Source of the DNA: an uncultured Acidobacteriota bacterium
Lineage (GTDB): Bacteria > Acidobacteriota > UBA6911 > RPQK01 > JAPXNP01
NCBI GenBank assembly: GCA_963823995.1
Contig: CAWGNQ010000005.1
Span: forward strand, 706,510 to 770,509
Length of the DNA: 64,000 nt
Direction: 5' to 3'
Position numbers and translations under genes: made by a program. The notes beneath the pieces are model-generated. The model was not told the DNA's origin. It made no database searches and was given only the letters and a program-made list of their open reading frames with translations. Below, in pieces: positions 3,767 through 55,417 of this stretch (positions within the stretch are counted from its first letter, which is position 1; each line of letters begins with the position of its first letter).

Positions 3767-3823
3767 CGCCCCCGAAAATTGACGGGCCCTGCCAGAATTC
3801 AAGGGGTGACAAGGAGTTCACCG

Positions 3824-6307
3824 ATGTTCGAAAAGACGAGTACAACACCGACGACCCTTCCGAAAGACCCGGTCTGTGGAATGGACGTCGATCCGAACAA
3901 CAGCGAGCTCCATTCAGACTATGGCGGCTCGACCTACTACTTCTGCAGCCGCTCCTGCCTCGAAGCCTTCGAAAAAGAGCCGAGACGCTACCTGGAGGAG
4001 AACGCCCGCGAAAAAACGGTCGGCGATCACCGTCATCCCCATTCACACCCAAAGGACCGCTCGGGTCGGGACGGTTCCGATCAGGTCTACACCTGTCCCA
4101 TGCATCCGGAAGTCGAAGAGGATGCTCCTGGAGGCTGCCCGGAATGCGGGATGGCCCTGGAACCGAAGCACCCGAAGATCTCCGCTCAGAAGACTCAGTA
4201 CACCTGTCCCATGCATCCGGAGGTCGTCGAGGACGAACCGGGCAGCTGCCCGAAGTGCGGGATGGCCCTCGAGCCAACCACCGTCTCGGCAGAAGCCGAA
4301 GAGGAGGATCCGGAGCTTCGCAATATGACGCGTCGATTCTGGGTCGGCGTCGTCCTGACGGCGCCGCTGCTGCTTCTTGCCATGGGCGACCACATCGGGC
4401 TGCCGATTCGATCCCTCATTTCGCAGCAGGTCTCCAACTGGATCGAACTGATGCTGGCGACCCCGGTCGTGCTCTGGGCCGGGTTGCCGTTTTTCCAGAG
4501 GGGCTATCACTCGATCAGGCGTATGAGCCTGAACATGTTCACGCTGATCTCTCTCGGCACCGGCGTCGCCTGGCTCTATAGCGTGGTCGCCACGCTGGCA
4601 CCCAACATCTTCCCTCAAGCCTTTCGAGGAGAAGCAGGTGCGGTCCCAGTCTACTTCGAGGCGGCGGCCGTCATCGTGACCCTGGTCTTGCTCGGCCAGG
4701 TCATGGAACTCCGGGCCCGCCGCTCGACCAGTGGAGCGATCAGGGGCCTGCTTGGCCTCGCGGCCAAAACGGCCCGGCTGGTGCGCGAGGACGACTCGGA
4801 AGTCGACATACCGCTGGACCAGGTTGAAATCGGACACCGGCTCCGAGTGCGGCCGGGCGAGAAGGTGCCGGTGGACGGGAAAGTGGTCGAGGGCAGGACG
4901 ACCGTCGACGAATCGATGATCACTGGAGAGCCGATTCCAGTCGAAAAGGCGCCCGGCGACGAGGTCGTCGGGGCAACGATCAACCAGACCGGAAGCGTCC
5001 TGATGGTGGCCGAGAAGGTCGGTAGCGAGACCGTACTGGCCCGCATCGTCCAGATGGTGAGCGAAGCCCAGCGCAGCCGTGCTCCGATTCAAAGGCTGGC
5101 CGATCAGGTGGCGGCCTGGTTCGTTCCCATCGTCGTCACTATTTCAGTCATTACGTTCGTGGTCTGGTCGATCTGGGGACCGCGCCCTGCCTTCGCCTAT
5201 GCACTGGTCAACGCCGTGGCCGTCCTGATCGTCGCCTGTCCCTGTGCCCTTGGGCTGGCCACGCCGATGTCGGTGATGGTCGGAGTCGGAAAGGGGGCGC
5301 AGAGCGGGGTTCTGATCAAGCACGCCGAAGCCATTGAAGTCCTGGAGAAGATCGACACGATCGTCGTCGACAAGACCGGCACGCTCACTGAAGGCCGGCC
5401 CCGACTCGTTACCGTGTCGGCCGAAGAGGGCTGGGACGAAACCGACTTCCTGCGGCTGGCCTCCGGGATCGAAGCGGGCAGCGAGCATCCCCTGGCAGCC
5501 GCCATTGTCGAGGGCGCAAAGGACCGCGGTGTGACGCCGGCCAAAGCACGGGACTTCGAGTCGGCCACGGGTAAAGGTGTGCTGGGCACTGTGGAGAGCC
5601 GTCAGGTGGCGCTCGGAAACCGGCGTCTGCTGGAGGATCTTTCGGTGGACGTCTCGGCGCTCTCTGAAAAGGCGACCTCACTGCGCGAGGATGGACAGAC
5701 CGTGATGTTCGTCGCCATCGACGGCAAGCCTGCCGGCCTGCTCGGCGTTGCCGACCCCATCAAGGAGTCGACACCGGAGGCCGTCCGGCTGCTCCATGAC
5801 GACGGGATCGAGATCATCATGCTCACCGGAGACAATCGGATGACGGCTGAGGCCGTCGCCCGAAAGCTCGGCATCGACAGGATCGAAGCCGAAGTCCTTC
5901 CGGATCAGAAGAACGAAGTGATCCAAAGGCTTCAGGCTGAAGGAAGAAAGGTGGCAATGGCAGGTGACGGCATCAATGACGCTCCGGCTCTCGCCCAGGC
6001 CCATGTCGGCATCGCCATGGGCAGTGGTACGGACGTGGCCATGGAAAGCGCCGGGATCACTCTCATGCAGGGGGACCTGCGCGGCATTGCAAAGGCCCGC
6101 ATGCTCAGCCACGCGACGATGCGCAACATCCGTCAGAACCTCTTCTTCGCCTTCGTCTACAATTCGATCGGTGTCCCCATCGCGGCCGGTGTGCTCTATC
6201 CCTTCTTCGGAATTCTCCTGAGCCCGATTATCGCCGCGGCCGCCATGAGTTTCAGTTCTGTCTCCGTCGTGGGAAACGCACTGAGGCTCCGCAACATCCG
6301 CCTCTAG
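3824..6307 (+). CDS. copA: copper-translocating P1B-type ATPase
   Basis: N-terminal YHS/TRASH domain ([10 protein letters not shown]...[16 protein letters not shown]); two HMBD repeats ([20 protein letters not shown] x2); CPC motif [11 protein letters not shown]; DKTGTLT; [13 protein letters not shown] aaggag before ATG 3824 (track ORF starts 3779). Confidence 0.95.
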
Positions 6308-10326: not shown

Positions 10327-11832
10327 ATGGTCGGCATCGGCATGGCAGGAGTCGTTCTGGTCAACCCCTACCGCTGGGGGTGGGCGGACAGCCTCCACCA
10401 TTCCGTCGCCGGACTCGTCCACGGACCCGAAGAGGCAGCCTCGGAGTCTGCCGAGGGACAGCTTTGGACCTGCGGGATGCATCCTCAGGTCGTCGAGGAT
10501 CATCCGGGAACTTGCCCCATCTGCGGAATGGACCTGATTCCGCTGAAAGGCTCGACCGGAGGACAAGCCATAGAGACTGCAGCCGGCCAGAAAGGAAAAG
10601 GCCGGAGCGAAGGTGAGCGAAAGATCCTCTACTGGCGCGCGCCGATGGATCCGACCTATACCTCGGACAAGCCGGGGAAATCGCCGATGGGCATGGATCT
10701 GGTCCCGGTCTATGCCGACGAAGCCGCCGGAGAGGGGTCGTCCGCCAACACGATCAAGATTGATCCGACCTTCGTCCAGAACATCGGCGTGCAGACGACC
10801 CCGGTCAAGCGTCAGGACATCCCTTTCACGATCCGAACGGTCGGAAACGTCACCTACAACGACGAACAAGTCCACTGGGTGAACACGAAATACGACGGCT
10901 GGATCGAGAAGGTCTATATCAACTACGTCGGGCAGCCTGTGAAGAAGGGACAGAAGCTCTTCGAGATTTATAGCCCGCAACTGGTCACCACCCAGCAGGA
11001 ATATCTCGATGCCCTCGACTACGCCGAGAAACTGAGCACGAGCCCCTATCCCGACATCAAAGAACGGGCCCGGTCCCTGCTGGAATCCTCCCGTCAGCGG
11101 CTCGCCTACTGGGACATTCCGAACGATCAGATTGCAGAACTGGAGAAGACCCGGAAACTTCTTCGCACCCTGAGCGTCGTCTCGCCGGTGACCGGGATGG
11201 TGGTCGAGAAGATGGATCAGGCGCTGGAAGGGATGCACGCGAAAGCCGGCATGAATCTCTACAAGATCGTCGATCTTTCGACGATCTGGGTCGAGGCGGA
11301 CATCTTCGAGAACCAGATCCCGTGGCTCAAGACAGGTCAGCCTGCAACGCTCGAATTCCCGTATCAGCCAGGCCGTAAATTCCGGGGAAGGATCCGGTAC
11401 ATCTACCCCTATTTCGATGACAAGACGCGCACGATGAGGGTCTCCCTCTCCCTTCCGAACCCGGGGCTCGAGTTCAAGAAGGACATGTATGTCAACGTGA
11501 CCTTCGACGTGCCCTCCGCTCACAACGTCATCACGGTTCCGGAAGAGGCCGTGATCCACAGCGGCGAGCGCAACGTCATCGTTCTGAGTCGCGGCAACGG
11601 GGAGTTCGAGGTCCGGGACGTCACGCTGGGCCTGAACGGCAGCGGCCTCTATGAGGTCAAACAGGGGTTGAAGGAAGGCGAAGAGATCGTCGTATCCTCC
11701 CAGTTCCTGATCGACTCGGAAAGCAATCTCAAGGAAGCCATTCGGAAGATGGTGGCGAAGAAGAGCGCCGCGGCGGAGAAACTGGAGAAATCCGAAGACA
11801 TGCAGGATATGCAACCGGCGACTGAGGATTGA
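10327..11832 (+). CDS. cusB: HME-RND membrane fusion protein (CusB-like) with N-terminal HMBD
   Basis: CGMHPQVVEDHPGTCPICGMDL and YWRAPMDPTYTSDKPGKSPMGMDLVPVY (CusB metal-binding N-terminus); beta-barrel/lipoyl MFP core. An RBS-preceded ATG at 10290 (MKKGILLSLVSF) lies in a different frame, suggesting a 1-bp indel at the T-run ~10322. Confidence 0.9.
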   Translation: MVGIGMAGVVLVNPYRWGWADSLHHSVAGLVHGPEEAASESAEGQLWTCGMHPQVVEDHPGTCPICGMDLIPLKGSTGGQAIETAAGQKGKGRSEGERKILYWRAPMDPTYTSDKPGKSPMGMDLVPVYADEAAGEGSSANTIKIDPTFVQNIGVQTTPVKRQDIPFTIRTVGNVTYNDEQVHWVNTKYDGWIEKVYINYVGQPVKKGQKLFEIYSPQLVTTQQEYLDALDYAEKLSTSPYPDIKERARSLLESSRQRLAYWDIPNDQIAELEKTRKLLRTLSVVSPVTGMVVEKMDQALEGMHAKAGMNLYKIVDLSTIWVEADIFENQIPWLKTGQPATLEFPYQPGRKFRGRIRYIYPYFDDKTRTMRVSLSLPNPGLEFKKDMYVNVTFDVPSAHNVITVPEEAVIHSGERNVIVLSRGNGEFEVRDVTLGLNGSGLYEVKQGLKEGEEIVVSSQFLIDSESNLKEAIRKMVAKKSAAAEKLEKSEDMQDMQPATED

Positions 11833-15658: not shown

Positions 15659-16147
15659 TTGGTCCGACAGATCATTGCATGTGCGATCATCCTTGCCCTG
15701 GCCGGCGGCCTGGCCTACTACTTCTGGCCCGCCCAGGAGCAGCTGTGCCCCGTCTGCGAGAGGCCGATTCACCGGGCGACGTCCTACTTCGTCACACTGG
15801 AAGACGGGAAAACGGTCGAGCTCTGCTGTCCTCGCTGCGGCCTGCGCTTCCAGCAGAACGGCGGAGACGTCCAGTCGGTCCAGGTGACGGACTATGACTC
15901 CGGCAAGAGGTTGGATCCGGACGAGGCCGTCTATGTCGAAGGCAGCTCCGTCCACCCCTGTTGCACGCAGGAAGAGATCATGAAGGATCAGGCCGGAATG
16001 GAGTACGAACGAACGTGGGACCGGTGCCTTCCGAGCGTGATCGCCTTCGCATCGAGGGACGCCGCCGTGAGATTCCGGGCGGAGCACGGCGGACAAGTGC
16101 GGACCCATCACCAGATCCTCGCAGAGATTCAGACCGGTGTGTACTGA
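15659..16147 (+). CDS. NosL-family copper-binding protein, TM-anchored
   Basis: CPVCERPI (cf. NosL CHVCGM), CCPRCG, DEAVYVEGSS and C-terminal LPSVIAFASRDAAVRFRAEHGGQV, which matches the NosL C-terminal SLASFAEEQDAKALAGMHGGRV region. Confidence 0.6.
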   Translation: MVRQIIACAIILALAGGLAYYFWPAQEQLCPVCERPIHRATSYFVTLEDGKTVELCCPRCGLRFQQNGGDVQSVQVTDYDSGKRLDPDEAVYVEGSSVHPCCTQEEIMKDQAGMEYERTWDRCLPSVIAFASRDAAVRFRAEHGGQVRTHHQILAEIQTGVY

Positions 16148-16185
16148 TTCACAGGCGTGCAGGATGGGAGGACGGGAGGACGCAC

Positions 16186-16347
16186 ATCAGAGCCGGAACG
16201 AAGTGAGGGACCCCCCTGCACGGCCGTCAAACACCCGGCTTTCCACGCCGGACGAACACCCGCGGCAGCCCGGCGGTTTTCGCGGGAACGGTCGGGACAC
16301 AATTACCGGGCTTTGGTGACACCCTCACTGCGTTCCGGCTCTGACGC
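16186..16347. mobile_element. MITE-like element copy 1 (~162 bp) with ~27-bp terminal inverted repeats
   Basis: Left arm catcagagccggaacgaagtgagggac, right arm ggtgacaccctcactgcgttccggctctgacg; near-identical element at 52598-52760. Confidence 0.5.
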
Positions 16348-16419
16348 TGCTGACGCTGCGGTTTCCGCAGCCCGCGCCGCGGGCTGCGCGCCAAATCGTA
16401 AACTAGTCGACGCCTCGCT

Positions 16420-17377
16420 CTAGCGCAGGTCCGTCAGCTCGATTCCCCTTCGTTCGAGATCTCCGGGTGACGAAAAAAGACCTTCGGCAGCGACCTGGTC
16501 CAGGACGAACGTCACGGGTCCACCCTCACGGGCGTAGAACTGCGCGTAGGACATGGGCATGGCGGTGTCCGGCTCGCAGAGCAGCGACCGGCTGACGGCG
16601 GCAATCTTCCTTTGCCCGTTCGCCAGGACCATTACCTCACGAGCCTCGAAGACCAGCTGCAGAGACATCGTGAGGGCGAAGCGCGGACATGCGTCCTGGC
16701 TGGTGAAGTAGCCGTCGCTGACCGCGTGTTCCCGGGTCACCCGGTCGAGTTCCACGAGCAGCAGACCTCCGAGTTCGAAAGGGATGCCGGCTTCATGGAA
16801 AGCCACATGACCGCGGCCGCCGACCCCCAGGATCTGGAGATCGATGCCCCCTGCCTGGCGTATCCGGAGGCCATACTGCTCCAGGATTTCGCTGCGCAGC
16901 CAATCCAGGTAGGGTGAGCTCGGATGCGGGCGGATCACGATCGCCTTTCCGCTCGATTCGCCCCGGCGCTCCCAGTCCTCGGAATGGGAATCCAGCTCCC
17001 GGACGAATCGAGCTACGTCGACGCGCTCGCCCTCCGGGACGAAGGTGGCTTCGGGCCGCCGTTCGAGGAGACCGAAGAGATGCCGCTCCATGAAATGGCG
17101 GAAGCTCGAGGGGTGTGGGGCGGAGCCACCGGGCGGGTTCGGCAGGCCGACATATTCATCGAGGTTGAAGGTCCGCCAACGTCTGCTGTCGAGCCGCTTC
17201 CGGTTGGCCGCCTCCACGAGCCGCGCGTAGACACCGGTCGGCGAATTGCCGGTCGCCAGACCCAGCACGATCTCCCTCTTCTCCCGTTCCAACCGCTGCA
17301 GACGCCGACGGATCCTTAGGGCGGCGACTTCGCTCATCTGTTCGAAGTCGCGCGTGACGAGCACCTGAATCGGCACG
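16420..17377 (-). CDS. nagB: glucosamine-6-phosphate deaminase
   Basis: GLATGNSPTGVY, FNLDEYVGL, DLQILGVGGRGHVAFHEAG; likely GTG start ~17377 after RBS aaggga (track ORF to 17454). Confidence 0.8.
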
Positions 17378-17477
17378 ATGCCAGACTCCCTTCGAAAAGG
17401 GAGAGTATAGGCAGAAAGCAGACGCACGAAAAGGCCCTGAGCGGTGGGGCGCAACGGACCCTGATGCGAGACCCGGG

Positions 17478-22302: not shown

Positions 22303-22384
22303 CCTTCCGCTGGCCTCCCGGGCCGGGGCCCTTGCCGGAAAGGCCGAGGGCCGCAAACGAGCAGCAAACGCGGCTGCATTTCGG

Positions 22385-23393
22385 CACCGTCAGTGCCGGA
22401 ACGAAGTGAGGGTTTCACCAAAGCCCATCCGCCGCTCCCCACCATTCCCGCACACACCACCGGAGTTACCGCTGCTGTTCATCCGGGATGGACCGGCCGA
22501 AACCGCACCGTCAGTGCCGGAACGAAGTGAGGGTTTCACCAAAGCCCATCCGCCGCTCCCCACCATTCCCGCAACCACCGGAGTCGCCGCCTGTGTTCAT
22601 CCGGGATGGACCGGCCGAAACCGCACCGTCAGAGCCGGAACGAAGTGAGGGTTTCACCAAAGCCCATCCGCCGCTCCCCACCATTCCCGCACACACCACC
22701 GGAGTTACCGCTGCTGTTCATCCGGGATGGACCGGCCGAAACCGCACCGTCAGAGCCGGAACGAAGTGAGGGTTTCACCAAAGCCCAACCGCCGCTCCCC
22801 ACCATTCCCGCAACCACCGCCGGAGTCGCCGCCTGTGTTCATCCGGGATGGACCGGCCGAAACCGCACCGTCAGAGCCGGAACGAAGTGAGGGTTTCACC
22901 AAAGCCCATCCGCCGCTCCCCACTATTCCCGCACACACCACCGGAGTTACCGCTGCTGTTCATCCGGGATGGACCGGCCGAAACCGCACCGTCAGAGCCG
23001 GAACGAAGTGAGGGTTTCACCAAAGCCCATCCGCCGCTCCCCACCATTCCCGCACACACCGCCGGAGTTGCCGCCGCTGTTCATCCGGGATGGAACGGCC
23101 GAAACCGCACCGTCAGTGCCGGAACGAAGTGAGGGTTTCACCAAAGCCCAACCGCCGCTCCCCACCATTCCCGCACACACCACCGGAGTTACCGCCGCTG
23201 TTCATCCGGGATGGAACGGCCGAAACCGCACCGTCAGAGCCGGAACGAAGTGAGGGTTTCACCAAAGCCCATCCGCCGCTCCCCACCATTCCCGCGAACA
23301 CCGCCGGGGTCGCCGCCGGTGATCATCCGGGATGGAAAGCCGGGCATTCGGCGACCGCACAGGGGGTCCCTCACTTCGTTCCGGCTCTGACGG
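22385..23393. repeat. tandem array of eight ~121-bp units plus a degenerate terminal unit, bounded by MITE-type terminal inverted repeats
   Basis: Unit: caccgtcag[t/a]gccggaacgaagtgagggtttcaccaaagccc...ccgaaaccg. Periods 121/118/121... Two unit variants (acacaccaccggagttaccgctgctg vs aaccaccggagtcgccgcctgtg) alternate. Array ends with the inverse arm ggtccctcacttcgttccggctctgacggtg (23361-23391). Confidence 0.85.
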
Positions 23394-23411
23394 TGTCGGT
23401 TGTGCGCCCCC

Positions 23412-27475: not shown

Positions 27476-29149
27476 ATGCGAGAGAACCCTATGGAAAGGC
27501 TCAAACTCAAGTTGCTCGCGTTCGCGATTTCCTCGACTTTCATTGTTTCGTTCTTCCCGGTGACGACGTTCGCACAGTCCGATTCGAGCAGACGGGACAG
27601 CGGAAAGTTGGCTCAAGAGGAAGCCGTCGACTACTACGGAAAGTGGCTCAACGAAGACGTGGTCTACATCATCACGCCGGAAGAGCGGAAAGTCTTCGAA
27701 GGTCTGACGACCCCCGAGGAAAAGGAGCGGTTCATCGAGCAGTTCTGGCTGCGACGCGATCCGGATCGTACGACCAAGGTGAATGAGTTCAAGGAAGAGC
27801 ACTATCGCAGGATCGCCTACGCGAACGAAAACTTCACATCGGGGATCGAAGGCTGGCGGTCGGACCGCGGGAGGATCTACATCATCCAGGGTCCCGCCGA
27901 TGAGGTGAAGTCGTTCACGGCCGGGCACCACCTCAATCGAGACTACAGCGAGGGGGGTGGAAGTACGCGGACCTACCCTTACGAGGTCTGGCGGTACCGC
28001 CACATCGACGGACTCGGCGACGACGTCGAACTGGAGTTCGTCGACAAGACCTTTTCCGGTTCTTTTCAGCTGGCCGTGACTCCATGGGACAAGGATCTTC
28101 TGTTGAACACTCCGGGCAGTGGCCTCACGATTGCAGAGATGTACGGCTCCGCGACCCGCGCCGATCATCCCTTCCACAATTGGTCGGTCCAGCACCAGGA
28201 CGAGTATCCGGGCCTGGCGCCTCGCAGCGGCAATCGCCCTTTCGAACGCATGGAGAGATACTTCAAGTCCCAGCGACCCCAGCAGATCAAATACGACGAT
28301 CTGAAGGAAGTCGTGCAGGTCAGCCTCAACTACGATGAGCTTCCCTTCCAGGTCCGCGAGGACTACATTCGGTTGAATGAGGCCCAGACCGTCGTACCGA
28401 TTACGCTCGAGTGGCGCAACAAGGACCTGACGTTCTCACCGGTTCCTGAAACCAACTCCTCCCAGGCCAAGATTGCCGTCTACGGCATCGTCACAGGCCT
28501 GTCGAATGAAGTGATCACGGAATTCGACGACGACGTCGTCAGCAGTTACGGTCCGGAGCAGAAAAACCTAATCACCCAGGGCAGCTCCATGTATCAGAAG
28601 GTCCTTTCGCTCGAGGCCGGAAACCGCTACAAGCTGACCCTGGTCACCAAGGACCTGAATGCCAATCGGACCGGTGTCAAGGACCTGGGACTGATCCTCC
28701 CCAAATTCGACAGACAGGGCCTGACGCTGAGCCCGGTCATTCTCTCTAACTTCGTGCGGCGTCTCGAGGGACCCGATCTCGAGAAGGACAACCTGATGTT
28801 CGTGCTCGGAGACCTCTGGATCCGGCCAAGCGTCGATCGGGAGTTCCAGCAGGGACAGGATATGGGGATCTACGTCCAGGCATACAACGCGGCGTTGGAC
28901 AGCCAGACGATGCAGCCTAACCTGGAGATCACCTATCACCTTGAAGGCGCGGACGACGTCGAACTCAATTTGGACGACCGCTCGGGCAAGGCGGTCGATT
29001 ACTTCTCAGCGCAGCGGGTCGTGCTCCTGAAGATCCTGCGTCTTTCGGAACTGCCTCCGGGCAAGTACTCGCTTGTCGTGGATGTCCTCGACCGGATCAC
29101 GGGCGCGAAGGCGTCGGTCCGCGAGCGCTTCTCGATCACCAAGAGCTGA
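27476..29149 (+). CDS. GWxTD-domain protein (copy 1)
   Basis: MRENPMERLKLKLLAFAISS signal; EEKERFIEQFWLRRDP; GWRSDRGRIYIIQG (GWxTD motif). Track ORF 27224 includes upstream junk. Confidence 0.8.
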   Translation: MRENPMERLKLKLLAFAISSTFIVSFFPVTTFAQSDSSRRDSGKLAQEEAVDYYGKWLNEDVVYIITPEERKVFEGLTTPEEKERFIEQFWLRRDPDRTTKVNEFKEEHYRRIAYANENFTSGIEGWRSDRGRIYIIQGPADEVKSFTAGHHLNRDYSEGGGSTRTYPYEVWRYRHIDGLGDDVELEFVDKTFSGSFQLAVTPWDKDLLLNTPGSGLTIAEMYGSATRADHPFHNWSVQHQDEYPGLAPRSGNRPFERMERYFKSQRPQQIKYDDLKEVVQVSLNYDELPFQVREDYIRLNEAQTVVPITLEWRNKDLTFSPVPETNSSQAKIAVYGIVTGLSNEVITEFDDDVVSSYGPEQKNLITQGSSMYQKVLSLEAGNRYKLTLVTKDLNANRTGVKDLGLILPKFDRQGLTLSPVILSNFVRRLEGPDLEKDNLMFVLGDLWIRPSVDREFQQGQDMGIYVQAYNAALDSQTMQPNLEITYHLEGADDVELNLDDRSGKAVDYFSAQRVVLLKILRLSELPPGKYSLVVDVLDRITGAKASVRERFSITKS

Positions 29150-29154
29150 ATACA

Positions 29155-29348
29155 GGAGAGAGGAGGCAGGAGGCAGGAGACGGGACACAGATGGGAGAAC
29201 GGGAGAACCGGAGGACGGGAGAACCGGACTTGACATCTGCAACGTTCCGGGTTCGACGATTCGGGTCTTCGGGCCGAGTTCTCGAAACCCGAAACCCGTA
29301 ACTCGAGACCATCAGGGTGACAACTTCTGGCCAGGACTTGACACCAAA
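29155..29348. repeat. composite intergenic repeat element E1 (GGGAGAAC tandem core, TTGACA boxes, GAAACCC repeats, cagggtgacaac..ggacttgacacc tail)
   Basis: Shares >100 bp of collinear similarity with 38681-38900; GGGAGAAC-type runs also at 47110-47165, 52440-52520, 52800-52830, 37326-37350. Confidence 0.6.
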
Positions 29349-29377
29349 TCCCCTCCTGTCTCCTGACCCCTGAGCTG

Positions 29378-37409: not shown

Positions 37410-37573
37410 GCGGGAACAACGCCCGTGAGATCACGGCCCTTGCCGGAGACAAGCACGGATGCTTATCCCACTCCCGCGGCCTCACTGTCCGATCTTTCGG
37501 AACTCAGCGGGAACAACGCCCGTGAGATCACGGCCCCTGCCGGAGACAAGCAGGGATGCTTATCCCACTCCCT
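37410..37573. repeat. two copies of a 66-bp direct repeat, each with a perfect 14-bp palindrome ccgtgagatcacgg
   Basis: 37410-37475 and 37508-37573, 2 mismatches; in convergent intergenic region. Confidence 0.8.
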
Positions 37574-38680: not shown

Positions 38681-38900
38681 CGGGAAACGGGAGTCGGGAA
38701 ACGGAATCCGGGAGCGTCTGGAAGCGCGAGGCGGAGAACGGGAGAACCGGAGGACGGGAGAACGGGAGGACTACGGAGCGAGCATCAGAGCCGGAACGAA
38801 GTGAGGGACCTACGGGTTTCGGGTCGCCGGGTTTCGAGGAACCAGAAACCAGGAACCGAAACCCTCAGGGTGACAACCTCTGACCGGGACTTGACACCCG
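38681..38900. repeat. composite intergenic repeat element E2 (GGGAAAC/GGGAGAAC core + solo MITE arm + GAAACC repeats + cagggtgacaac..ggacttgacacc tail)
   Basis: Collinear with E1; contains catcagagccggaacgaagtgagggacc (38784-38811), identical to the MITE left arm. Confidence 0.6.
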
Positions 38901-39021
38901 GCGCCGCCTTGACTCACCCACCCTACCGCACTAGTATCGCTGCGTTCGATGGCGACCTCGGCTGTTCCAGGAGTCTCCCGCGCGGCAGGCCTTCAGGTCA
39001 TCCAAATGCGAGGAATTGGTG

Positions 39022-47055: not shown

Positions 47056-47350
47056 GCAACGTTCCACGTTTCACGTTCCAAGTTTCACGTCTCACGTTCA
47101 CGGTTCGGCGTGGGGAGACCGGGAGTCGGGAAACGGGAAACGGGAGTCGGGAGAACGGGAAAACGGGGACACGAGGGGTCGAAGGATTGTTGGACCGCCG
47201 CGGGCTGTGCACCCCGAATTCGCTCTGACTCCCTGACTCGAATTACCTCGCTCGAATACCGGACACGCGTTCCAGTTACATCCCGATCAAGCTGCCGAGC
47301 CCAAGGACCCGCAACTTGGAACCTGAAACCTGGAAACTGGAACGTCAAAA
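47056..47350. repeat. composite intergenic repeat element E3 (GTTTCACGT x4, GGGAGTCGGGAAACGGGA run, GGAACCTGAAACC x5)
   Basis: Simple-repeat blocks related to E1/E2 fill the convergent pheA / GT5 intergenic region. Confidence 0.6.
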
Positions 47351-50457: not shown

Positions 50458-50892
50458 ATGAATGAGTTTCGATGGCCCCGGGTGATCGTCGCCGGCCTTG
50501 CAGCCGGCGCCGTCCTCCTGGCCGGAGAAACCATTTTGAACAGCTTCATCCTCGGGATCGAATGGCAGCAGCGTCTTCTCGACCTCGGGGTCGCTCCGCT
50601 GACGCGTGCCGCCGCCGTCCTGCTCGTATCGATTACGATTCTGCTGGGGGTGTTCGAAGCCTGGCTGATTGTACGCCTGCGCCGCACGCCCGGCGTGATC
50701 ATACCTCGGGTCGTCCTGGAGGCTGCCCTCGTCGTCTGGCTCACCGTCTTCGTTTTTACTTCTGCGTGGCTGTTCCTGTTGAACGTCTTCCCTGCCCGAC
50801 TGATGGTCCTCAGTAGCCTCTGGGGGCTCGGCGAATGCGTTCTGGCCTCGCTGGCCGCCACGTGGATCCTTTCGAGAAGAGGTCGATCATGA
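50458..50892 (+). CDS. hypothetical integral membrane protein (4 TM)
   Basis: Four hydrophobic helices; no motif recognised. Confidence 0.5.
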   Translation: MNEFRWPRVIVAGLAAGAVLLAGETILNSFILGIEWQQRLLDLGVAPLTRAAAVLLVSITILLGVFEAWLIVRLRRTPGVIIPRVVLEAALVVWLTVFVFTSAWLFLLNVFPARLMVLSSLWGLGECVLASLAATWILSRRGRS

Positions 50893-52304
50893 ATCTGGCC
50901 CTGGGTTTACGGCTTTCCCTCCTCATTATTCTGCCGGCGACAGCGGCGTTCCTTCCCGGGCGCGATCTGCCCGTTCTCGAACAGCACTATTCCGGTGCTG
51001 CGACCCGGATCATCGATCGAGCCCGGCAAGATTCAGAGACCTGGAGTAAGCTCGAATATCTCTGTGATCGGATCGGCCATCGTTTGAGTGGTTCGCCCCA
51101 GCTCGAAAAGGCCGCTCAATGGGCCGCCGAGACGATGCGAGCGGATGGTCTCGAGCATGTCCATCTGCAGCCGGTGGAAGTGCCTCACTGGGTCCGAGGA
51201 TCCGAATCGTGTCGGATGGTCGCACCGCTGCTTCGCCCCCTGCACATTCTCGGACTCGGCGGCAGCATCGCGACTCCGGCCGAAGGGATTCGTGCGTCGG
51301 TGGTCGTGGTCGACAGCTTCGAGGATCTGGATGCGCTGGGCGCCGACAAGGTCAAGGGACGGATCGTCGTCTTCAATGAGCCCTGGGAAGGCTACGGCCG
51401 AACGGTCCGGTACCGCTACTCCGCGGCGTCGCGAGCTTCCGCTTTGGGGGCCGTCGCCGTACTCGTCCGTTCCGTCACTCCGGTCAGTCTCCAGTCGCCT
51501 CACACCGGATCCCTCGGCTACTCTTCCGCTGCTCCGCCCATTCCGGCGGCCGCTGTCACGATCGAGGATGCGCTCCTGCTCCGCCGCCTTGACGACCTGG
51601 GAGCCGCGATCGAAATCGAACTGCATATGGATGCTCAGACCCTCGCTCCCGCCCAGTCCGCGAACGTGATCGGCGAAATCACCGGAAGTGAGCTTCCGGA
51701 ACAGGTCGTGGTGATCGGCGGCCACCTCGACTCCTGGGATGTCGGGCAGGGCGCTCACGACGACGGAGCGGGCGTGGCCGTCTCGATGCAGGCGGTCAAG
51801 CTGCTGCTCGACCTGGGCCTGAGACCTCGCCGCACGCTCAGGGTCGTGCTCTTCACCAATGAGGAGAATGGCTTGGCCGGAGGCAAGGCGTACCGTGCAG
51901 CACTCGGCGAGACCTCCCTCCGAAATCACGTCGCCGCCATTGAAATGGACGCCGGTGCGGAACAACCGCTGGGCTTCGGTGTGAGCCTTTCAGGAGAAGA
52001 AGGCTCTGTCGACGGGAATGTCGATCCGGCATTGGGTCTGCTCGAGGGCGTTGCTCACCTGCTCAGCCCTGTCGGTGCGGATCACGTCTCGGCCGGAGGA
52101 GGCGGAGCCGACATCAGCCCCCTGATGCACGACGGTGTCCCCGGCCTTGGCCTGCGGACGATCGGGACGCATTACTTCGATTGGCATCACACCGATTCGG
52201 ACACCCTGGACAAAGTAGATCCGGATGCACTGCGGGCGAACCTCGCCGCGATGGCGGTGATGGCGTATATCCTGGCCGACATGCCCGGAACACTGGCAGA
52301 GTAG
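50889..52304 (+). CDS. M28-family zinc aminopeptidase with PA domain, secreted
   Basis: ATGA coupling with upstream gene; HLDSWDVGQGAHDDGAGVAVSMQAVKLL and NEENGLAGG metal-ligand motifs. Confidence 0.8.
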   Translation: MNLALGLRLSLLIILPATAAFLPGRDLPVLEQHYSGAATRIIDRARQDSETWSKLEYLCDRIGHRLSGSPQLEKAAQWAAETMRADGLEHVHLQPVEVPHWVRGSESCRMVAPLLRPLHILGLGGSIATPAEGIRASVVVVDSFEDLDALGADKVKGRIVVFNEPWEGYGRTVRYRYSAASRASALGAVAVLVRSVTPVSLQSPHTGSLGYSSAAPPIPAAAVTIEDALLLRRLDDLGAAIEIELHMDAQTLAPAQSANVIGEITGSELPEQVVVIGGHLDSWDVGQGAHDDGAGVAVSMQAVKLLLDLGLRPRRTLRVVLFTNEENGLAGGKAYRAALGETSLRNHVAAIEMDAGAEQPLGFGVSLSGEEGSVDGNVDPALGLLEGVAHLLSPVGADHVSAGGGGADISPLMHDGVPGLGLRTIGTHYFDWHHTDSDTLDKVDPDALRANLAAMAVMAYILADMPGTLAE

Positions 52305-52424: not shown

Positions 52425-52530
52425 CCGTGGCCGGACGGGAGGCCGGAGGCCGGGTCGCCGGAGAACGGGTCGCCGGGAGAACGGGTCGCCGGGGGTAGCG
52501 GGTGGCCGGAGAACGGGTGGCCCGGGGGTA
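52425..52530. repeat. GGGAGAACGGGTSGCC-type tandem repeat block (element E4)
   Basis: gccggagaacgggtcgccgggagaacgggtcgccgggggtagcgggtggccggagaacgggtggcc... Confidence 0.7.
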
Positions 52531-52597
52531 GCGGGTGGAAGGAAGGGCATCTCCCGCCCGTAGCCTGACGCGATTTCCCAATCGTGCACGAATGGGA

Positions 52598-52760
52598 CAT
52601 CAGAGCCGGAGCGAAGTGAGGGACCCCAATTCACGGTTGTCGAATCCCCCCGTTTATTACCCCGGACGAACTCCCGCGGCAGCCCGGGGGCTTTCACGGG
52701 AATCGCCGGGCTTCGATGACCGGGCTTTGGTGACACCCTCACTTCGTTCCGGCTCTGACG
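52598..52760. mobile_element. MITE-like element copy 2 (~163 bp) with terminal inverted repeats
   Basis: catcagagccggagcgaagtgagggacc ... ggtgacaccctcacttcgttccggctctgacg; internal ccggacgaac.cccgcggcagcccgg shared with copy 1. A solo arm follows at 52780-52802. Confidence 0.5.
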
Positions 52761-52895
52761 GTGCCATTTGCGGGATGCTGGGGAACGAAGTGAGGGACGT
52801 CGGCCAGTTCCCGTTCTCCCGTTCTCCCTTCCCGGCTGTCCCGGCGAAACGGAAAAGATATCCCACTCGGCCTCCCCCTCCTGTGTTCCGCCGAG

Positions 52896-53366
52896 TCACC
52901 CGTCTCGGCGCCGTCGATCCGCGAAGAACTCCCGGAGAACTCGGCGGCACGCCTCGCCCCCGACACCCGGCGTCACGGCCACCGTGTGATTGAAGAGTCC
53001 CGGCTCGAGCAGCCGGGCTCGCGATGCGACAGCCCCGGCCTTCTCGTCCGCCGTGCCATAGATCAGTCGGGCGACCCGACCCCAGATCATCGCTCCGGCA
53101 CACATCGCACAGGGTTCCAGCGTGGCGTACAGCTCCAGTCCGGAGAGCCGGTAGTTGGAAAGACGGGCGCCTGCCTCCCTGAGCACGAGCATTTCAGCAT
53201 GAGCGGAAGGGTCGGAGAGTTGGATGCTGCGGTTGTGATCCCGGGCGACCAGGCGCCCCTCGAGAACCGCGACCGCCCCGACGGGCACCTCTCCCTCCTC
53301 CCGCGCCCGCTCCGCCTCCTCGAGTGCGATCGCCATCCAGTCGTCGTCCGTCGTCGGCAGATCCAT
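52896..53366 (-). CDS. tadA: tRNA adenosine(34) deaminase
   Basis: HAEM and PCAMCAGA zinc-ligand motifs; likely start MDLPTTDDDWMAIAL at 53366 (track ORF to 53381). Confidence 0.85.
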   Translation of the reverse strand: MDLPTTDDDWMAIALEEAERAREEGEVPVGAVAVLEGRLVARDHNRSIQLSDPSAHAEMLVLREAGARLSNYRLSGLELYATLEPCAMCAGAMIWGRVARLIYGTADEKAGAVASRARLLEPGLFNHTVAVTPGVGGEACRRVLREFFADRRRRDG

Positions 53367-53367
53367 T

Positions 53368-53625
53368 TCAGAGAAGCCCATCGTACACGATGTTGCCCCC
53401 CTCCTCTCGCATCAGACGGCACAAAGGACAATCAGCCTCGAAGTACTCGGCAGGATCGAACTCGCGGATCCGACGCTCCAGTTCCTGTTCAGTCGGATTG
53501 TCGAGATGGACGAGGTTGAAGCGGCCGACGCGCGTGATGATCGCGTTGTCTCCGAACATCTTCTTCAGTTCCGCGTCCGATTCGGGAACCTCCCCGCACT
53601 CTGATCTCTGCATAGAGAAAGACAT
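53368..53625 (-). CDS. small hypothetical protein with CPLC motif, coupled to tadA
   Basis: 85 aa, overlaps tadA start by a few nt; ...EADCPLCRLMREEGGNIVYDG. Confidence 0.4.
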   Translation of the reverse strand: MSFSMQRSECGEVPESDAELKKMFGDNAIITRVGRFNLVHLDNPTEQELERRIREFDPAEYFEADCPLCRLMREEGGNIVYDGLL

Positions 53626-53782: not shown

Positions 53783-55417
53783 TCAATGCTCGGGGGCCGC
53801 AGGTGCGATCTGAAACGGGGAGGAGAGCTCGACCGACTGGCCGGCCAGCCGATCATCGACCTCGACCCGGACTCGATAGTGTCCCGGCTCGAGGCCTTCC
53901 AACGGAAGGGACCGCACAATGACGACTCTGTCCTGAGAAAAGTACTCGACCGAGTCTTCCCGGTCGTCCGTCACGGTCCGGACCACACTCCCATCCTGGG
54001 AAATCGTGAAGGTCAGCTTCAAGTCGGGACGAAGGGTCGACTGGTCCAGCCTCGCGTTATAGAGATGGAAATAGAGCCCAACCGGGGACCCCGATTCGAA
54101 CCGCCGGTCCACGCTGGGGCGGACCTTCACGTCACCGATCACGAACATGTCATCGGCCTTCGGAACCTCGGAAAGAACTTCGAGCCGGTTTGCGAGAACC
54201 AGCGAGCTGGCCTCCAACGTATCCGTGCCAACCCGGGGTGGATTCAGTGCCTGGCGGGTGACCCCGACCTTCTGGCTGGTCAGATCCTTCACCACCAGAA
54301 CCAGCTTGTAGCGGAGCTTCCGGTCGAGGGGAAGCACTTTCTGATAGACCGAAGAATGCCGGAGTCCCTCTCTCAGTCCACTTTCGCCGAAGGATGTTTG
54401 CAGATCATCCTCGAACTCCGAGACGACGCGGTTCGTGATGCTGGTGACCGTCCCGTAGACCGCCAGTCGTGCCACGCGCCGCTCGCCCTCAGGTTGAAAC
54501 GTCAGGTCTTTGTTCCTGACGCGGAGCGTGATGGGGACCAGCACCTCCCGGTCATTCAGCCGGAAATAGTCCTCAGCGACCTCCAGCGGAAGGTCGTCGT
54601 AGCTCAGATTGACCTCGACGATTTCCTTCAGGTCACGATACTTGATCTGAGTCGGCCGCTGCACCATGGCGTAGGTCTCGTACCGGCTGAAGGGATTGTC
54701 CCTGGCTCTTTGCGGCATGAGAGGATAGCCGTCCCGATTCCCGGGGGAGAACCAGGGCCGATCGGCCTTGGTAGCCAGTCCGAGCTGTTCGGCGAGAGTG
54801 GCGCCTCCACCCGGAACGTGCAGGAGGGCATCCTTCTCTTCCGGATAGAGCGCAAGTTTGTACTCGCCGGTCAGACTGGGGTCTACGAATTCGAGTTCAA
54901 TATCGTCACCGATGCCCTCGATGTGGCGATAGCGCCAGACCTCGAAAGGGTACGTGACCGTGCTGCCACCCCCCTCGTTGGCAGGCCTCTCGTAGTAACC
55001 ACCCGAGGGATGGGACTCGATTTCAGCCGGTCGGCCATGGATGATGTAAATTCGCCCGCGATCGGTCATCCACCCGGGCAGACCGGAACTGAAATGCTCG
55101 TTGGAGTATGCGATGCGCCGGTAGTGCTCCTCCTTGAATTCATTGATCGAAGTCGATGGGTCGGGATCGCGGCGGAACCAGAACTGTTCGATGAACTGTT
55201 CCTTCTCTTCCTCCGTGGTCAGGCGTTTGAAGACATCGCGCTCCTCTTCGGTGATGATGTAGACGACGTCTTCGTCCAGCCACTTGCGGTAGTAATCCTC
55301 CGACTCTTCCTGGCGCAGTTGGGTGGGATCCTGGGCAGAGAGGGTCTCAGGCCCGGCAAGACCGGTGAGCAACAGGGACGCGAAAAGTACGCTGGATCGA
55401 CAGTTCATGACGGTCAA
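53783..55417 (-). CDS. GWxTD-domain protein (copy 2)
   Basis: Signal peptide; EEKEQFIEQFWFRRDP; GWMTDRGRIYIIHG; collinear with the 27476-29149 product. Confidence 0.85.
   Translation of the reverse strand: MTVMNCRSSVLFASLLLTGLAGPETLSAQDPTQLRQEESEDYYRKWLDEDVVYIITEEERDVFKRLTTEEEKEQFIEQFWFRRDPDPSTSINEFKEEHYRRIAYSNEHFSSGLPGWMTDRGRIYIIHGRPAEIESHPSGGYYERPANEGGGSTVTYPFEVWRYRHIEGIGDDIELEFVDPSLTGEYKLALYPEEKDALLHVPGGGATLAEQLGLATKADRPWFSPGNRDGYPLMPQRARDNPFSRYETYAMVQRPTQIKYRDLKEIVEVNLSYDDLPLEVAEDYFRLNDREVLVPITLRVRNKDLTFQPEGERRVARLAVYGTVTSITNRVVSEFEDDLQTSFGESGLREGLRHSSVYQKVLPLDRKLRYKLVLVVKDLTSQKVGVTRQALNPPRVGTDTLEASSLVLANRLEVLSEVPKADDMFVIGDVKVRPSVDRRFESGSPVGLYFHLYNARLDQSTLRPDLKLTFTISQDGSVVRTVTDDREDSVEYFSQDRVVIVRSLPLEGLEPGHYRVRVEVDDRLAGQSVELSSPFQIAPAAPEH

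Follow-up and report, generated by a model that had tools for sequence, protein, structure and literature searches.

The 64,000-nucleotide stretch of DNA analysed here (hereafter the window) comes from an uncultured Bryobacterales-like Acidobacteriota. Its genes, as identified by Pfam scans and by gene calls on matching contigs, are an ordinary chromosomal set. They include genes for Cus-type copper efflux, TPR proteins, a TonB-dependent receptor, GWxTD proteins, and glycoside hydrolases, as well as those for MurB, an EPSP-synthase-family protein (MurA or AroA), PheA, an M28 peptidase, a deaminase, and MoaA. Dispersed between the genes of this uncultured soil Acidobacterium is a non-coding repeat of about 165 bases with matching inverted ends. 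Inverted matches of 100-300 nt with 71-80% identity also link window positions 27614-28045 and 54881-55312. These were rejected as mobile DNA, as they represent two paralogous GWxTD-domain genes on opposite strands.

An earlier note on this DNA had described two full copies of a MITE-like element, and both are present: c1 at 16185-16346 and c2 at 52598-52760. A third full copy, c3, which resides on the minus strand at 23223-23395, had been overlooked. The intergenic placement and the neighbors given for c1 and c2 proved correct. Copy c1 lies between convergent genes, namely a NosL-like gene (15659-16147, plus strand) that forms the end of the Cus/HMBD copper island and a glucosamine-6-P isomerase-like gene (16420-17454, minus strand). 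Copy c2 lies between the convergent genes for the M28 peptidase (50835-52304, plus strand) and a tadA-like cytidine/adenosine deaminase (52896-53381, minus strand). Likewise, c3 and a tandem array that adjoins it are located between the convergent genes for a 281-aa protein and the TonB-dependent receptor. Convergent junctions make up about 10 of the ~40 on the gene map, and the presence of all three full copies in such junctions has a probability of p ~0.016. Most convergent spacers in the window are nevertheless free of the element, and a truncated copy at 38781-38835 occupies a divergent (promoter) spacer.

Some of the flanking genes are followed by terminator-like hairpins of their own. 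The TonB-dependent receptor gene is followed by a canonical intrinsic terminator (23455-23426, minus strand), and c3 starts about 30 nt beyond it. GC-rich hairpins were read by eye at ~16375-16398, after the isomerase-like gene, and at ~22330-22360, after the gene for the 281-aa protein. No hairpin was seen between the NosL-like gene and c1, and no terminator-like site was found in the flanks of c2. On the NosL-side and c2 flanks, the element could act as a terminator.

Anatomy and conservation of the element

The 22-nt core of the arms, CAGAGCCGGAACGAAGTGAGGG, has 14 matches in the window when at most three mismatches are allowed, compared with 0.00 expected from 100 dinucleotide-preserving shuffles. 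Eight of these 14 matches fall at 22391-23256 on the plus strand, and one is inverted at 23368-23389. The full copies are 162-173 bp in length (c1-c3). Both c1 and c2 start with CATCAGAGCCGGA[A/G]CGAAGTGAGGGAC and finish with its reverse complement. In c1, which spans 16185-16363 on the plus strand when its conserved tail is counted, the left arm (16185-16211, CATCAGAGCCGGAACGAAGTGAGGGAC) is followed by an interior of ~108 nt and by a right arm with a subterminal block (16308-16350); homology at the right end reaches ~16363. Copy c2 (52598-52765, plus strand) has its left arm at 52598-52624, with one mismatch, and its right arm with the subterminal block at 52722-52765. The left arm of c3 is found at 23368-23395 and its first right arm at 23223-23270, and the inverted repeat of this copy is perfect over 28 nt (CACCGTCAGAGCCGGAACGAAGTGAGGG). 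The common internal block that had been quoted for c1 and c2 is real in the alignments of these two copies. At the right terminus of c1 (16344-16361) there is also a 9-bp tandem duplication (CTGACGCTG twice), 3' of which is a perfect 7-bp hairpin, GCTGCGG-TTT-CCGCAGC.

The left arm agrees with the reverse complement of the right arm at 22-23 of 25 positions within each copy, which upholds the inverted-repeat ends claimed previously. These ends had been put at ~27 bp. The inverted ends are real, but the conserved right end is longer, at about 44 nt (GCACCGTCAGAGCCGGAACGAAGTGAGGGT[GT]TCACCAAAGCCC). Right ends take the form GCACCGTCAGAGCC...GGGT[GT]TCACCAAAGCCC and left ends the form CATCAGAGCC...GGGACCCC, and the differences between left-type and right-type ends are kept consistently in all copies. 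The right arms and the left arm of c3 start with CGTCAGAG; in c1, c2, and the truncated copy, the left arm starts with CATCAGAG. Because the right end is longer than the left end and differs from it, the element has polarity.

Two further sites had been listed as solo arms. The one at 38784-38811 is an exact copy of the c1 left arm, but it is part of a truncated copy (38781-38835, plus strand) that retains ~30 nt of interior as well (nhmmer E=8.5e-6, model positions 10-69). This truncated copy starts 11 nt past a (GGGAGAAC)n tract. The other site, given as 52780-52802, was confirmed as an exact 17-mer, GGAACGAAGTGAGGGAC, at 52782-52798 on the plus strand, about 17 nt past the conserved right end of c2 (52765). 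This fragment has 6 mismatches over the 22-mer, with its inner 17 nt exact, and is followed by the complement of GGGAGAAC repeats. Members of the family are found at 16, 23, 38, and 52 kb of the window and in both orientations. Copies are 6-30 kb apart and have no flanking DNA in common beyond ~15 nt, and homology stops sharply at the arms.

Between copies, the arms differ at only 6 of 150 compared positions (96% identical), compared with 89 of 328 positions in the interiors (67-76% identity). Near-invariant arms beside drifting interiors imply that the sequence of the arms, and not merely their pairing, is constrained. Such a contrast would be expected if recognition by a protein constrains the arms while the interiors drift, and a host function or gene conversion could account for it equally well. 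A full copy has 58 predicted pairs and could form one long hairpin. The folding energy of full copies ranges from -83 to -109 kcal/mol (z = -4.6 to -8.7 relative to shuffles). This strong fold is due to the arms, because the interiors alone are no more stable than dinucleotide shuffles (z = -1.9 to +1.3). Single arms (27-47 nt, with RNA and DNA parameters) fold no better than shuffles and are not palindromes. Across ten sequences, pairing in a 7-bp central stem-loop amounts to 87%, with one covarying pair (AU/GC/GU/CG). This constitutes weak evidence because the ten sequences are closely related.

The intergenic DNA of the window also harbors several kinds of simple repeats. Purine-rich 8-mer microsatellites, (GGGAGAAC/GGGAGGAC)n, and related repeats with periods of 15-33 nt occur in several spacers (16161-16183, 29186-29228, 38725-38775, 47113-47167, and 52436-52538, with the complement at 52808-52830). 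Two left arms begin 3 and 11 nt past such a tract, and a complementary tract comes after the arm fragment at 52782. The tail of L116, from a 76% relative, has (ACGGACGA)n at the same position after the M28 gene. These tracts could reflect a target preference, could be regulatory DNA of the G-quadruplex type, or could be a coincidence. Another convergent spacer contains a 66-nt direct repeat (37410-37475 and 37507-37572; 97% identical, spaced 97 bp) that is unrelated to the arm family. Downstream of 8-mer tracts, positions 29311-29345 and 38864-38898 have in common a block, TCAGGGTGACAAC.TCTG.CC.GGACTTGACACC, with a TTGACA-like hexamer, and this block may be a shared promoter module. Finally, the convergent spacer between pheA and a glycosyltransferase gene carries (ACGTTTC)n and GGAAAC/GGAACC-type runs at 47059-47106 and 47310-47345.

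A tandem array at the c3 locus

Directly following c3 are seven tandem units (22388-23231, minus strand), six of which are 121 bp and one of which is 118 bp in length. Analysis of this locus with TRF yielded a repeat at 22384-23336 with a period of 121, 7.9 copies, and 93% matches. Each unit consists of an interior, a right arm, and a tail of ~12 nt, and the architecture of c3 plus the array on the minus strand is L-I-R-(I'-R)7, with 8 right arms. A CRISPR array was rejected as an identity for this locus because whole 121-bp units are 90-97% identical and there are no unique spacers. The unit types alternate in the order A-B-A-B-A, which creates a higher-order period of 242 bp, a pattern typical of unequal crossover.

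A possible origin for the array is suggested by a 7-bp direct repeat, GTGCGGT. One copy (23344-23350, minus strand) is located just inside the c3 left arm and the second (23225-23231) just outside the first right arm, and between them the two copies enclose the stretch from which the unit arose. Slipped-strand mispairing between these two repeats probably duplicated the segment comprising the interior and the right arm, and unequal recombination of dimers would then have grown this duplicated segment into a minisatellite with eight arms. Both the A-B-A-B-A alternation and the bracketing 7-bp repeat fit slippage plus unequal crossover. The array reflects a second process, local amplification, that goes beyond what the term "MITE" alone covers, and this BOX-like expansion is confined to one locus.

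The number of right arms in the array is 8 in the window and 2 in L001, a contig from an ENA assembly of a near-identical strain. L001 has almost no differences from the window over 15-22 kb and is 99.6% identical over 23-32 kb. The discrepancy in arm number is either a genuine VNTR or an assembly collapse. Between window positions 11500 and 15000, in the cusA region of the copper island, the two diverge by ~10-20%. The diverged segment ends ~1 kb upstream of c1 and indicates DNA that has been recombined or exchanged.

A different reading of the array is that its units are tandem small genes, each of which would encode a 30-aa Gly-rich peptide on the minus strand (MNSSGNSGGVCGNGGERRMGFGETLTSFRL) or a small RNA. 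Although every unit has an ATG, 29-30 codons, and an in-frame TGA, with the stop codon within the arm, ACG replaces ATG in both c1 and c2, and shared interior blocks shift the frame. The array units also have no Shine-Dalgarno sequence. The sole length variant is an in-frame 3-nt deletion, as a peptide would call for, yet a hand count of ~7 non-synonymous and 2 synonymous substitutions among units looks neutral. A protein-database search returned no match at E<=10 for the c1 translation, a query that was c1 rather than the array peptide and that could detect only near-full-length, near-identical c1 copies in the same frame. An RNA gene fares no better, with no promoter-like sites in evidence and no match to Rfam 15 at the gathering score or E<=1 anywhere in the window. 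We therefore consider tandem small genes to be exceedingly improbable. For the element as a whole, no conserved ORF was found among copies, and neither a sigma-70-like promoter nor any other promoter or terminator signal was found within it. A coding element was rejected on account of ACG in place of ATG, the change in frame, and the missing ribosome-binding site.

Distribution among relatives and assemblies

Among GTDB representatives, the best match to the M28 peptidase is from an uncultured Acidobacteriota MAG (72% aa), and the next are from Bryobacterales/Bryobacteraceae MAGs (53-63%). The exact arm, searched as a 21-mer, has 0 matches in 185,579 GTDB representative genomes, and an 18-mer from the arm has 0 matches in viral contigs. 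The same 18-mer has 27 isolated single matches in JGI metagenomes, none with the bases that adjoin the core. These matches were rejected as family members and attributed to chance because the adjoining arm bases are absent. A blastn search of plasmid records returned only two 34-nt chance matches and no similar ends.

The same organism was found in one ENA assembly, as a 40-kb contig, and in two Logan runs, and the same-species contigs all carry the copies. Three Logan contigs from this organism break inside arms. One ends at 16317, in the c1 right arm; another starts at 22393, in the first array arm; and the third starts at ~52739, in the c2 right arm. These breaks fit the behavior of a multi-copy repeat in de Bruijn assemblies.

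Eighty Bryobacterales loci totaling 1.4 Mb contain only one other family member, a remnant in L031, the 72% aa relative. In the M28-tadA spacer of this genome there is a diverged left arm with adjoining interior, CAGAGCCCAGACGAGGTGAGGGACCCCTGCACGG, in the opposite orientation. The arm matches at 18 of 22 positions and is then followed by CCCCTGCACGG. This spacer is 591 nt in the window, 479 nt in L031, and no more than ~86 nt in L033 (63% aa), and these relatives are too distant to define the boundaries of the element. Contigs of the relatives at 76-79% aa stop just after the flanking genes or bear other repeats. In one 76% aa relative (L112, 6580-6993), the spacer orthologous to that of the array holds a different and unrelated family of hairpin-type intergenic repeats, built on the palindrome GCGGTAGCTTGCTACCGC with flanking GGCGCAGCCGCTTTGGACTG. 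Other relatives have inverted-repeat pairs of their own. Sites of this kind thus seem to be occupied by different small-repeat families in different lineages. As judged from these sequence searches, the family described here seems to be lineage-specific and restricted in distribution.

Possible origins and comparison with known repeats

Considering the three full copies within the 64-kb window, we find it somewhat probable that the repeat is a lineage-specific family of non-autonomous, non-coding dispersed elements, MITE- or REPIN-like, that has been mobile and whose arms are bound by a trans-acting enzyme. The terminal inverted repeats of 25-30 bp would be the functional part of such an element, and they would most likely be recognized by a protein whose gene lies elsewhere in the genome. 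This protein would be a transposase or a RAYT-like enzyme that has been domesticated. Copies would survive where insertion is harmless, in the spacers between the 3' ends of convergent genes, and the fragments would be decayed copies. A mobile family is favored because the boundaries are sharp, the flanks are unrelated, both orientations occur, and decayed remnants are present. It is favored also because the copies reside in safe spacers, beyond the terminators where these are seen, and because a diverged arm exists in another lineage.

Some expected marks of transposition are missing. The earlier note had called for a search for target-site duplications, and no consistent duplication of at least 3 bp was found at any combination of boundary offsets for c1, c2, c3, or c3 plus the array. 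A DDE-type MITE should leave such a duplication if the insertions are recent, and the absence counts against one; a short duplication could have decayed if the copies are old. The label of MITE-like element holds with respect to small size (MITEs are shorter than 600 bp), non-coding sequence, terminal inverted repeats, and dispersed intergenic copies and fragments, but not with respect to target-site duplication. It had also been stated that no transposase is known for these ends. In agreement with this, no transposase domain, arm-flanked gene, or RAYT was seen among the window ORFs scanned, which were the ~30 longer ones and left out a few called genes, including the ORF at 3779-6307. A clean pair of filled and empty sites was not obtained among the relatives because these are at most 79% identical at the aa level and their intergenic DNA cannot be aligned. 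A candidate paralogous empty site, in the spacers at 29160-29360 and 38700-38910, was rejected because the common blocks are too diverged to reveal an insertion point.

If the copies are recent and constrained by an enzyme, the missing duplication points away from a classical DDE transposase and towards a REPIN/RAYT-like or recombinase-type mechanism. Alternatively, the copies are old, and a host function or gene conversion has maintained their arms in place, a reading that we favor less. One very unlikely variant invokes an uncharacterized recombinase or transposase that makes no target-site duplication and re-initiates at the right arm. The array would then be a one-ended or rolling-circle-like footprint rather than a product of slippage, and the (GGGAGRAC)n tracts would be a sequence-specific target.

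A host-serving element of the REP/BIME/ERIC kind, whose arms are under selection in place, seems unlikely to us. In one form of this idea, the transcribed 25-bp arms pair into a hairpin that blocks 3'-exonucleases or that stops or insulates convergent transcription; in another, the arms are bound by a nucleoid or regulatory protein. The stable folding of full copies is in keeping with the hairpin, but the element lacks a U-tract and its interior is no more stable than dinucleotide shuffles. Moreover, a purely structural constraint would permit compensatory changes in the arms, yet these are almost invariant. All full copies do sit between convergent 3' ends, but most convergent spacers in the window do without the element, and some flanking genes have terminator-like hairpins of their own before it. 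The far better conservation of arms than interiors and the arm-like remnant in the same spacer of the 72%-aa relative also speak for a host function, as does, weakly, the central stem-loop, which may be conserved and has its one covarying pair. The truncated copy and the arm fragment, on the other hand, would serve no such role.

It is also quite doubtful that the repeat was never mobile and that its copies stem from a small number of segmental duplications or gene conversions among intergenic regions, with ongoing conversion keeping the arms alike. Such an origin would account for the lack of target-site duplications and for the failure to find a transposase among the ORFs scanned. The array proves that local duplication acts on the sequence of the element, and intergenic regions of this genome have other short blocks and microsatellites in common. 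However, the copies are widely spaced, occur in both orientations, and have no common flanks beyond ~15 nt, and their homology ends sharply at the arms. Conversion would also homogenize the interiors, and a related arm occurs in another lineage. The earlier note had proposed that, should only the listed copies exist and flanking duplications be lacking, the repeat would simply be a local duplication. Flanking duplications are indeed lacking, yet a local duplication alone clearly does not explain copies that are spread over 16, 23, 38, and 52 kb, and a diverged arm is found in another genus-level relative.

Returning to the mobile family, the element is a new, lineage-restricted example of the general class of small non-autonomous intergenic repeats. 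It belongs to no named family because it lacks the target-site duplication of a classical MITE and the arm hairpin of a REP. Among MITEs, the Correia element of Neisseria is ~100-155 bp in length and has 26-bp terminal inverted repeats and a TA target-site duplication (PMC3049150, PMC3184786). The present element resembles the Correia element and the enterobacterial ERIC/IRU elements in that it is 100-170 bp, non-coding, and devoid of its own transposase, and it likewise has dispersed intergenic copies and fragments. Its terminal inverted repeats, too, measure ~26 bp and make the entire element fold into a long hairpin. In contrast to Correia, it has no target-site duplication. It further differs from these MITEs in being GC-rich rather than AT-rich, in having one end amplified in tandem, and in showing no similarity to plasmid records, no exact arm in viral contigs, and no identified IS with matching ends.

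Resemblance to the REP, REPIN-RAYT, and BIME systems (PMC3116915, PMC3337134, PMC3733652) is found in the two inverted conserved arms with a less conserved spacer, in single arms as decayed remnants, and in the absence of target-site duplications. Like those repeats, the element is extragenic, commonly at 3' ends, and is lineage-restricted and apparently vertically persistent. REP repeats have a conserved GTAG or CGTC tetranucleotide at one end. The right arms of the element begin with CGTC, which is the tag of one REP superfamily, whereas its left arms carry CATC instead. Unlike a REP, a single arm is not a stem-loop, and the REP dimensions of an 8-9-bp stem and a 4-5-nt loop are absent. Membership in the REP family was rejected because the arms are not hairpins, whereas each REP unit is an imperfect palindrome of 20-40 bp. 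REPIN-RAYT systems also have a single-copy RAYT (Y1/HUH transposase) gene with the repeats at its flanks, and the window ORFs that were scanned include no RAYT. Two other candidate identities, integron attC and dif/Xer sites, were dropped from consideration because their core motifs are absent. A likeness to the 38-bp inverted repeat of the Tn3 family was dropped as well, because the flanks have no GGGG start or TAAG end and homology stops at C(A/G)TCAGAG.

For the array, the closest architectural parallels are other repeats with variable modules. The pneumococcal BOX element has the structure boxA-(boxB)n-boxC, with an array length that varies among strains and that has been attributed to slippage or unequal crossover (PMC3049150). 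The element described here is similarly a dispersed repeat of composite build in which the two outer modules can pair, and it has an internal module in variable tandem number (8 versus 2 right arms in the window and L001, although the count in L001 may reflect assembly collapse). Unlike BOX, the repeated module includes the right terminal arm, as in L-I-R-(I'-R)n, and expansion is seen at only one of the three loci. The two are unrelated in sequence, and the likeness is architectural only. The MIRU minisatellites or VNTRs of mycobacteria are intergenic tandem arrays with units of 50-120 bp that derive from a dispersed repeat. As with MIRUs, copy number may differ between near-identical strains (8 versus 2 here). 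However, MIRUs have no terminal inverted repeats and are typically translationally coupled to flanking genes, and neither is true of the present array.

This repeat family is new, but it is of a kind that is ordinary among small bacterial repeats, and it leaves existing knowledge of how such elements work unchanged. In Acidobacteriota, a dominant but mostly uncultured phylum of soil bacteria, small dispersed repeats have been poorly documented. The family also has practical consequences, as it breaks short-read assemblies at predictable points, and the array, with 8 versus 2 units, might serve as a VNTR marker when strains are typed. The arms, in turn, offer a handle for finding the enzyme that recognizes them.
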